Origin: Escherichia coli
GTDB lineage: Bacteria > Pseudomonadota > Gammaproteobacteria > Enterobacterales > Enterobacteriaceae
Direction: 5' to 3' (one strand)
DNA: 64,000 nucleotides
Assembly (NCBI RefSeq): GCF_044324875.1
Contig: NZ_CP172185.1
The stretch's first letter is position 1, and each line of letters begins with the position of its first letter. Under the pieces are notes generated by a model. It saw only the letters and a program-made list of their open reading frames with translations. It was not told the origin of the DNA and did no database searches. Shown piece by piece: positions 47,905-48,268 of the stretch. The position numbers were made by a program, and so were the translations under genes.

Positions 47905-47977
47905 AATCGTTACCTCGTTTAACGGTTTGGTTAGACGCCCTGCATGTGTGCCACCACTGCGGGGCGTTGTCGCTTGG

Positions 47978-48068
47978 TGCATCGCACCACTCATTTTTAA
48001 CCTATCAGTAAGTGAATCGCACTTCAAGCCTTTCTCTGAAATTTTTTTTGTGTATACTGAATCGCACC
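47978..48068. promoter_or_regulatory. Divergent control region with three (A/C)ATCGCAC(C) repeats and an extended -10 (TGTGTATACT)
   Basis: Repeats at 47980-47988, 48015-48022, 48060-48068; -10-like TATACT at 48051-48056; lies between the divergent 47904 gene and the RHH gene. Confidence 0.45.
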
Positions 48069-48088
48069 AACTTAGAGAGGATTCAGTA

Positions 48089-48268
48089 ATGGCAACAGGT
48101 TCAACAAATAATAAGTCGCAACAGTTAAATGCCAGATTCCCGCATGATGTTGTTGCAGACTTAGAAAAAAATTTAGATGAAGGTGAAAGCAAGGCGCAAT
48201 TTATAGTTACTGCCGTTAAAGGCGAGATCAAACGCCGCCAGCGCCGCAAGGCCAAAGAAGCGGAATAA
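48089..48268 (+). CDS. Ribbon-helix-helix (Arc/MetJ/CopG-like) DNA-binding protein, 59 aa; candidate repressor
   Basis: Translation MATGSTNNKSQQLNARFPHDVVADLEKNLDEGESKAQFIVTAVKGEIKRRQRRKAKEAE fits an RHH strand-helix-helix pattern; SD agagagg. Confidence 0.55.
   Translation: MATGSTNNKSQQLNARFPHDVVADLEKNLDEGESKAQFIVTAVKGEIKRRQRRKAKEAE

Follow-up and report, generated by a model that had tools for sequence, protein, structure and literature searches.

We describe here a small gene of the YlcI type, encoding a 59-amino-acid (aa) protein, in a 64,000-nucleotide stretch of the Escherichia coli contig NZ_CP172185.1 (hereafter the window). The protein is predicted to adopt a ribbon-helix-helix (RHH) fold, and its gene adjoins three short operator-like sites between two divergent promoters of an integrated phage satellite. 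Our reading, which we hold with a probability of roughly 0.7, is that proteins of this type act as repressor and autorepressor, forming with their sites an exchangeable immunity cassette in satellites of the capsid-forming phage-inducible chromosomal island (cf-PICI) kind. Behind this reading stands the observation that the 5-bp core of the sites alters whenever residues 9-18 of the protein alter, and stays constant when the flanking DNA diverges, among 40 loci from more than 20 genera of Enterobacterales and three further E. coli loci (L043-L045) added to them. The YlcI-type protein is a strong candidate for the repressor so far unidentified in Gram-negative phage satellites, whose global repressor has been described as unclear (PMC6092414). 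The open-access PMC and bioRxiv literature that we searched held no report on a function of YlcI, YnfO or DUF3950, or on an RHH repressor in satellites. The elements of the control region are the following, with positions counted from the first letter of the window.

48089-48268, plus strand: ylcI-like gene, 59-aa protein, proposed repressor and autorepressor
47976-47988 (core 47977-47987): candidate operator S1, GGTGCATCGCACC, at about +5 to +15 of the inferred P_L
48011-48023 (core 48012-48022): candidate operator S2, AGTGAATCGCACT, in the 17-nt spacer of P_L, touching the -35 hexamer
48056-48068 (core CTGAATCGCAC, 48057-48067): candidate operator S3, ACTGAATCGCACC, over the last 2 nt of the P_R -10 and the start region
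47999-48027, minus strand: inferred P_L, with -35 TTGAAG (48027-48022), a 17-nt spacer and -10 TAGGTT (48004-47999)
48053-48058, plus strand: P_R -10 hexamer TATACT, preceded by a T-run and a poor -35
47928-47970, minus strand: conserved leader hairpin of the leftward transcript, with S1 on one side and the ribosome-binding site for the Icd-like gene on the other
47707-47904, minus strand: Icd-like 65-aa protein, encoded first in the leftward operon (NCBIfam NF033153 at 64.9 bits, cut-off 25)

The original prediction, made from the letters of the window, had placed three repeats between a leftward open reading frame (ORF) starting at 47904 and the 59-codon ORF at 48089-48268, and all of these are found where it put them, the repeats being CATCGCACC at 47980-47988, AATCGCAC(T) at 48015-48023 and AATCGCACC at 48060-48068. 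The repeat unit is longer than first seen, comprising 11-13 bp of the form (G)GTG-N5-CAC(C/T) with invariant GTG and CAC arms; in S3 the left arm reads CTG or ATG, not GTG, because its bases are shared with the -10 hexamer TATACT. While the 8-mer is not enriched throughout the window (5 matches versus 3.55 expected), three copies of a 7-mer within the 184-nt intergenic region were reached in just 56 of 20000 dinucleotide-preserving shuffles, and the three repeats are not a product of chance. Relative to the ylcI start codon, the window's sites lie at -113 (S1), -78 (S2) and -33 (S3), and equivalent sites are present at these distances in 39 of the 40 loci, where S1 may also lie at -100 or -103. 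S3 is fixed at -33 in 39 of the 40, S1 is present at one of its positions in 39 of the 40, S2 is fixed at -78 in most loci, and the orientation of S1 relative to S2 is inverted in several types. Across the 40 loci, the control region is the only place with full sites at up to one mismatch, save for three stray single matches elsewhere. As a separate observation, an E. coli locus with the beta-strand KSQKLQARAP (L044) holds at its positions 2876-2886 an additional palindromic GTG-ATAAA-CAC, with a core unlike that of its three cognate sites, roughly where the leader hairpin stands in other loci.

At least 11 specificity types of protein and site can be told apart. Seven of them are given below by residues 9-18 and site, and further types show the same pattern of residues and core.

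KSQQLNARFP: GTGAATCGCAC
KSQMTTVRIP: GTGA(A/C)ATACAC
KSQQIVSRVP: GTGAATGCCAC
KSLQVSVRLP: GTGAACACCAC
KSRQKTARVP: GTGACTCCCAC
KSQLFTVRVP: GTGAAACACAC
KSQSVTVRVL: GTGTCTTACAC

The distance between beta-strands (residues 9-18) correlates with that between S3 cores at a Spearman coefficient of 0.79, a value that none of 2000 Mantel permutations reached, compared to a mere 0.20 for its correlation with the distance between inter-site spacers. All 189 pairs of loci that share a beta-strand have cores with at most one mismatch, whereas in 573 of 591 pairs with different beta-strands the cores are more than one base apart. Where the beta-strand differs and the spacer is similar, 3.7 of the 5 core bases differ on average, versus 0.63 of 5 where the beta-strand is the same and the spacer has diverged. 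In this co-variation the repeats behave as operators of the RHH protein, which supports that part of the original prediction, as does their location on core elements of two divergent promoters. Co-variation this strong is what sequence-specific DNA binding through the beta-strand would be expected to leave.

In two pairs of islands, a mosaic structure shows where the determinant of specificity lies. In the first, the window against E. coli GF4 (L001), the flanks are kept and the replacement takes in the cores of all three sites and the protein's N-terminal half. Between L016 and L024, the flanks are at least about 95% identical, including an Icd-like gene of about 95%, and the YlcI C-terminus is identical, with a central segment of about 300 bp swapped that holds both the operators and the leader hairpin. 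Two loci outside the first set of 40 conform to the expected pattern. A type A E. coli locus with DNA of only 76% identity has the beta-strand of the window and retains the full triplet of sites: S2 and S3 are unchanged, while S1 reads GGTGAATCGCACC, the common form of the type, and not GGTGCATCGCACC as in the window. KSQKLQARAP, a common type in E. coli, has the sites GTGGAATCCAC and CTGGATTCCAG, and its core is that of a Tenebrionibacter locus (L014) with the beta-strand KSQKLQTRAP. Islands that share one genome carry different types in four of five cases.

That the 59-aa protein is of the RHH kind, as had been proposed, is supported by AlphaFold models. Because RHH proteins fold only as intertwined dimers, each row of the alignment was given two copies of the protein, connected through a (GGGGS)5 linker. 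The resulting single-chain dimer shows a strand at 10-18 and helices at 19-27 and 35-59 in both halves, i.e. beta-alpha-alpha twice, with a predicted local distance difference test score (pLDDT) of 93-97 in the folded parts and a predicted template modelling score (pTM) of 0.73. In this model the dimer is intertwined with its N-terminal strands paired, which is the RHH topology. The turn G-x-S/T/N expected before helix B is represented by G32-E33-S/T34, nearly invariant in an alignment of 29 sequences, and the best matches of the monomer model are RHH regulators and antitoxins, the antitoxins including Rv0298, HicB, TacA2 and MazE6. Strand residues 13, 15 and 17 are hydrophobic and probably face the core of the modelled fold, in which case residues 10, 12, 14 and 16 would face the DNA. 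Like the arms of the sites, S10 and R16 are invariant, and like the site core, residues 12 and 14 are variable. The basic C-terminal helix, EIKRRQRRK, is specific to the family, with E46-R52 invariant.

Both putative promoters stand out in an alignment of 15 loci. On the minus strand, TTGA(n)G, 17 nt and TA(nnn)T are invariant outside the sites, and on the plus strand a nearly invariant block, GTATACTGA, holds TATACT beside S3. Judged from these elements, transcription would start near 47992 on the minus strand and near 48065 on the plus strand. The 'extended -10' that had been read in TGTGTATACT is one base off the canonical TGnTATAAT; the -10 hexamer TATACT is conserved, and S3 overlaps its last two bases. 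Our search agreed with the earlier statement that the control region has no LexA box; an exact CTGT-N8-ACAG does occur at 47169-47184 inside the leftward operon, at a window-wide count that is at chance level. For the leader hairpin six pairs are predicted, and across 14 loci three of the six show compensatory changes. A conserved UCUAACC follows it.

How might such a cassette function? The 59-aa protein would form an RHH dimer whose N-terminal strand (10-18) reads the 11-bp GTG-N5-CAC, with the invariant S10 and R16 reading the invariant arms and the variable residues 12 and 14 reading the 5-bp core. A Q12M/N14T exchange would be expected to move site preference from GTGAATCGCAC towards GTGAAATACAC. 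S1 and S2 flank the P_L -10, S2 in the spacer and S1 just past the start, and their occupancy would shut down the Icd-like/replication operon, while S3, with its weaker left arm on the promoter of ylcI itself, would provide negative autoregulation. A pair of good sites at the operon promoter, together with a single weaker and putatively autoregulatory one, is a geometry typical of repression. The operators and the N-terminal half of the gene are exchanged between islands as a unit, as in phage immunity regions. Release from repression would most likely follow one of two routes. AlpA-activated leftward transcription could run antisense through the convergent ylcI and into the operon, thereby bypassing repression and lowering the amount of repressor; alternatively, an anti-repressor from the helper phage or the island could act on the invariant basic C-terminal helix. 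The gene alpA is convergent on ylcI in the window and in most loci, and the terminator-like hairpins between the two have T-runs only on the plus strand, so that leftward transcripts from the alpA promoter would cross ylcI antisense and enter the operon.

Several points weigh against this reading. All of the evidence is computational. What was computed comprises the sites and where they lie, how they co-vary with the protein, its predicted fold and the mosaic exchange; from these we infer binding, the sign of regulation, the transcription starts and the route of induction. A Pfam scan with the 59-aa protein gave no match even at E <= 10 and a sequence-profile search of the PDB nothing relevant, so that RHH membership is taken from the predicted fold, which itself comes from AlphaFold models. 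The alignment behind these models was shallow, at 25-29 sequences, and one model includes an artificial linker. A generic promoter scan of the window calls neither P_L nor P_R, the P_L -10 in the window (TAGGTT) is weak and the P_R -35 poor, so that both promoters rest on their conservation across loci. Furthermore, S2 is degenerate in some Xenorhabdus loci. Since the operators adjoin the N-terminal half of the gene, linkage could explain part of the correlation; the mosaic pairs and the contrast with the spacers argue against linkage as the explanation. Lastly, many PICIs, including those of the prototype EcCIEDL933 type, lack the ylcI cassette, which is therefore not a universal master repressor and is better described as a widespread optional module.

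Could the protein instead be a local autoregulator of ylcI and its cargo, with no real control of the leftward operon or of quiescence? S3 does lie on the ylcI promoter, the cargo downstream varies, AlpA-dependent induction in Gram-negative PICIs requires no repressor (PMC6092414), and islands without the cassette exist. However, the two better-armed sites flank the conserved P_L -10 and not the gene's own promoter, S1 overlaps the leftward -10 itself where it lies at -100, and the number of types, at least 11, is more typical of immunity determinants, so that we regard a purely local role as rather unlikely. We find it improbable that the protein activates P_L, or that another factor (AlpA, the Icd-like protein or RepA) binds sites that simply travel with the cassette. 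The weak -10 of the window's P_L makes an activator conceivable, and the cassette is inherited as a block, but a site in the 17-nt spacer together with one over the start is how a repressor would be placed, and the type of site does not go with the AlpA, RepA or integrase family, all of which vary freely. The Icd-like protein was rejected as the binder, as L016 and L024 (about 95% Icd identity) and also L008 and L032 (similar Icd) differ in their sites. Least credible to us is a type II toxin-antitoxin pair, with the YlcI-type protein as antitoxin and the 63-aa ORF that follows ylcI in the window as toxin. RHH antitoxins, which autoregulate through operators, are among the fold matches and a small ORF is indeed present. 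Yet that ORF is limited to the window and GF4 and has no match to a toxin family, and a terminator-like hairpin lies between the two genes. Most loci have nothing conserved after ylcI, with alpA converging directly, and we rejected this reading given that the 40 loci show no conserved downstream partner gene, let alone a co-transcribed toxin.

The original prediction had gone further, proposing that the RHH repressor also binds at 42364-42372 and so couples early to morphogenetic expression. The repeat copy that it placed about 75 bp upstream of the capsid gene is indeed there, an exact AATCGCACC on the plus strand, 77 nt upstream of the capsid ATG at 42287, where about 0.1 such matches would be expected per 15-kb island. 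It is a half-site only: it has AGC where the sites have GTG or CTG, and is not found among the 11-mer matches at up to one mismatch. Upstream of homologous capsid genes, no type-matched half-site was found in the YlcI-bearing islands L006, L008, L009, L019, L030, L035 or L036, and L023 has a single match with one mismatch. Moreover, the cf-PICI of O157:H7, which has neither a ylcI gene nor operators, carries a capsid leader 97% identical to that of the window, and identical through AATCGCACC and well beyond. As the motif is kept in an island without ylcI, it is part of a conserved late leader that is independent of YlcI. We therefore rejected it as a fourth operator, and control of the capsid operon by the protein, already disfavoured on these grounds, strikes us as very improbable.

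What does connect the regulatory end to the late operon at the level of sequence is a different repeat. Direct repeats of TTGTTC-N4 with a 10-bp period have nine matches in the window versus 1.06 expected, a number that 0 of 100 shuffles reached, in the following arrays.

35354-35379, minus strand
42503-42528, minus strand
49316-49361, plus strand
50712-50727, minus strand

These arrays are near both ends of the island, in the gap between int and alpA (five units) and, with three units, some 220 nt ahead of the capsid gene, the capsid-side array being 96% complementary to the one on the alpA side. The repeats are conserved in the O157 island, L019 and L023, and are candidate arm-type sites for AlpA or the integrase. 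Further features are found upstream of capsid genes. At 42379-42426, a 17-nt inverted repeat (TTTCCCGCCTGGTAATG / CATTAACAGGCGGGAAA, 94% complementary) adjoins the capsid-upstream AATCGCACC. Conservation extends to the O157 island, and the repeat may form a structure or serve as a regulatory site in the late leader. An ORF of 157 aa (42603-43076, plus strand) is inserted in divergent orientation to the capsid operon. The O157 island lacks it, the alignment with that island breaking off at about 42560. Neither NCBIfam nor PHROG gave a match for the ORF, none of the 40 loci has a homologue, and it is probably accessory cargo. In L006, L019 and L023, a conserved block TTTTTCATGTATAT(C/G)TTGAA followed by a GC-rich hairpin (GAGTGGCACTCAGACGTGAGCCGCCACT) lies about 100-140 nt upstream of the capsid genes, and this may represent a late promoter and leader shared among other cf-PICIs.

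The satellite itself spans about 35.3-50.7 kb of the window. In about 15 kb, a cf-PICI combines int, alpA and a replication gene with genes for capsid, protease, portal, connector and terminase, and it has none for tail or lysis. In the window, PHROG matches were found for capsid, portal, the large terminase subunit, primase/helicase and AlpA, the ORF map shows no tail or lysis genes, and the order and sizes of the ORFs are those of the annotated O157:H7 island of the EcCIEDL933 type. For EcCIEDL933, a helper phage, which supplies the tails, is reported to induce and transfer the island (bioRxiv 10.1101/2022.09.08.507074). The genes placed in the window island are as follows.

49408-50637, minus strand: tyrosine integrase
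48845-49033, minus strand: alpA, excisionase/activator family, convergent with ylcI (phrog_2790, 'excisionase and transcriptional regulator')
48326-48517, plus strand: 63-aa ORF downstream of ylcI (orf66; listed from GTG 48317 as 66 aa), variable cargo
44873-46279, minus strand: RepA/primase-type protein
43698-44108, minus strand: SSB
43406-43690, minus strand: PerC-like protein
41130-42287, minus strand: HK97-type capsid, ATG at 42287
minus strand: protease, portal, connector genes, HNH endonuclease and terminase

At the regulatory end, only the 59-codon ORF at 48089-48268 and the 63-codon ORF after it run against this minus-strand flow. The cassette sits between alpA and the leftward Icd-like/replication operon. 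Directly downstream of the RepA/primase gene, at 44662-44875, three copies of an iteron-like TTTTGCTCCCCACTTTTT are spaced 83-85 nt apart inside a 46-nt repeat pair, accompanied by inverted CCCCAC elements; these are probably the replication origin of the island.

The 59-aa protein belongs to NCBIfam NF041551 (YlcI/YnfO; 63.3 bits against a cut-off of 30, over residues 9-50), in agreement with the YlcI/YnfO annotation of its homologues in RefSeq, and to PHROG phrog_949, where its function is listed as unknown. A database search returned 134 relatives across Enterobacterales, and a scan with one genome per species gave 39 ylcI-type loci from more than 20 genera. The cassette sequence was matched in 1165 of 5426 complete E. 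coli genomes. A tblastn search of 50,697 phage records yielded no homologue of the protein and no link to helper phages, and judging by these searches the YlcI subfamily of the window looks satellite-specific.

What follows ylcI varies between loci. Among the 40, the 63-aa ORF has a homologue in GF4 only; it has no family match in NCBIfam or PHROG, and is followed by a strong plus-strand terminator at 48552-48571. In 24 loci and in L043-L045, alpA is found downstream of ylcI on the opposite strand. In one locus (L013), a 94-aa ORF (MKITFDPGKDRINQNKHGYSLADAERL...) at about +59 nt after ylcI may be a toxin of the BrnT/DUF497 type, an example of how variable the cargo in this slot is. Downstream of alpA in the window, at 48600-48792 on the minus strand, lies a start-proximal fragment of a leftward gene (MKTGYTPEQGRG...) whose equivalent in GF4 is annotated as an incomplete pseudogene. 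It looks like a scar, left when the ylcI cassette took the place of the gene that comes after alpA in islands lacking the cassette.

In most loci, the first gene of the leftward operon is an Icd-like ORF. In the window, the operon additionally carries an RNA module (47472-47676) between two Icd-like ORFs, made up of the following elements.

47472-47559, minus strand: C4 antisense RNA (RF01695; Rfam 72.3 bits against a gathering threshold of 45, full model length)
47627-47676, minus strand: a1/b1 target-like element (c4-a1b1, 44 bits, below the gathering threshold of 46.7; E 2e-8)
47585-47663, minus strand: isrK-like element with terminator (isrK, 35 bits, below the gathering threshold of 50)

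The earlier statement that no CI-like repressor is evident thus does not hold at the RNA level, the element at 47472-47559 being an antisense RNA of the P1 C4 / P4 CI type. C4-type hits in Gram-negative PICIs have been noted before (PMC10111431). C4 was found in two of the eight loci scanned, the window and GF4, and not in the six other YlcI loci; the module is therefore separable from the core cassette, and we rejected C4 as an obligatory partner of it. A different RNA, the Rfam int-alpA motif (RF02996), was observed in two YlcI islands (L002 at 13057-13125, 52 bits; L015 at 13113-13181, 44.9 bits), and in the window it gave no hit at E <= 1.

In its widest form, our proposal is that the YlcI cassette is the missing determinant of quiescence and immunity in a large subset of Gram-negative PICIs and cf-PICIs, with at least 11 heteroimmune classes, and is switched off by AlpA-driven antisense transcription or by a factor of the helper phage or the island that acts on the invariant basic C-terminal helix (EIKRRQR). 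We offer this version tentatively, at somewhat worse than even odds. If true, it would place a protein repressor upstream of AlpA activation and, in some islands, upstream of an RNA immunity layer of the P4/P1 type. The findings assign a candidate function to the YlcI/YnfO, phrog_949 family, and they correct the idea of a capsid operon under YlcI-type control. They also provide a natural set of matched RHH protein and operator pairs, set apart for the most part by two residues of the strand and five base pairs. Such pairs could serve to derive an RHH recognition code, to predict the coexistence or exclusion of satellites, and as orthogonal repressor parts.

Of the known members of the family, YlcI (DLP12) and YnfO (Qin) of E. 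coli K-12 share NF041551, their small size and the same predicted strand-helix-helix, while identity is just 23% over 31 residues. In K-12, the cos region lies between ylcI and the divergent nohD, and ylcI has no GTG-N5-CAC triplet; being too distant and lacking comparable sites, the DLP12 gene was rejected as a model of the same architecture. The literature searched held no report on the function of K-12 YlcI or YnfO. The RNA layer of the window recalls immI of P1 (C4, icd, ant) and CI of P4, given that its operon holds Icd-like ORFs, a C4-family RNA and target-like elements. In P1, the C1 repressor acts at Op51, a protein-controlled promoter upstream of the RNA-level control, and the window would have the same order of layers. 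The window differs in that its protein is of the predicted RHH kind and is not a C1 homologue, and in that the RNA module, present in two of eight loci, lies outside the core cassette.

Among RHH proteins, omega binds as one dimer per short asymmetric heptad, in either orientation. The cassette resembles omega of pSM19035 and CopG of pMV158 in that S1 is inverted relative to S2 in several types and the sites overlap core promoter elements. However, the omega units are contiguous 7-bp heptads, whereas the sites here are isolated, 11-13 bp long and furnished with palindromic GTG/CAC arms, and the long basic C-terminal helix (EIKRRQRRK) is specific to the YlcI family. Arc and Mnt of P22 immI have no detectable sequence relationship to the YlcI protein. 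They bind one operator as a tetramer and control an antirepressor gene; here, three separate 11-bp sites lie 22-45 bp apart, and what would be controlled is the Icd-like/replication operon of a satellite. The proposed role is that of Stl/Rpr in Gram-positive PICIs (SaPIs), which is also a repressor placed by divergent promoters that silences the replication operon and comes in many allelic specificities. Stl, in contrast, is a large helix-turn-helix protein that is inactivated by helper-phage proteins, while the protein described here has 59 aa and a predicted RHH fold, and many Gram-negative PICIs do without its gene. Thus, although by sequence it is a member of none of these groups, the YlcI cassette would work in the manner of Arc/Mnt, CopG or omega, and would fill the role that Stl has in the SaPIs.

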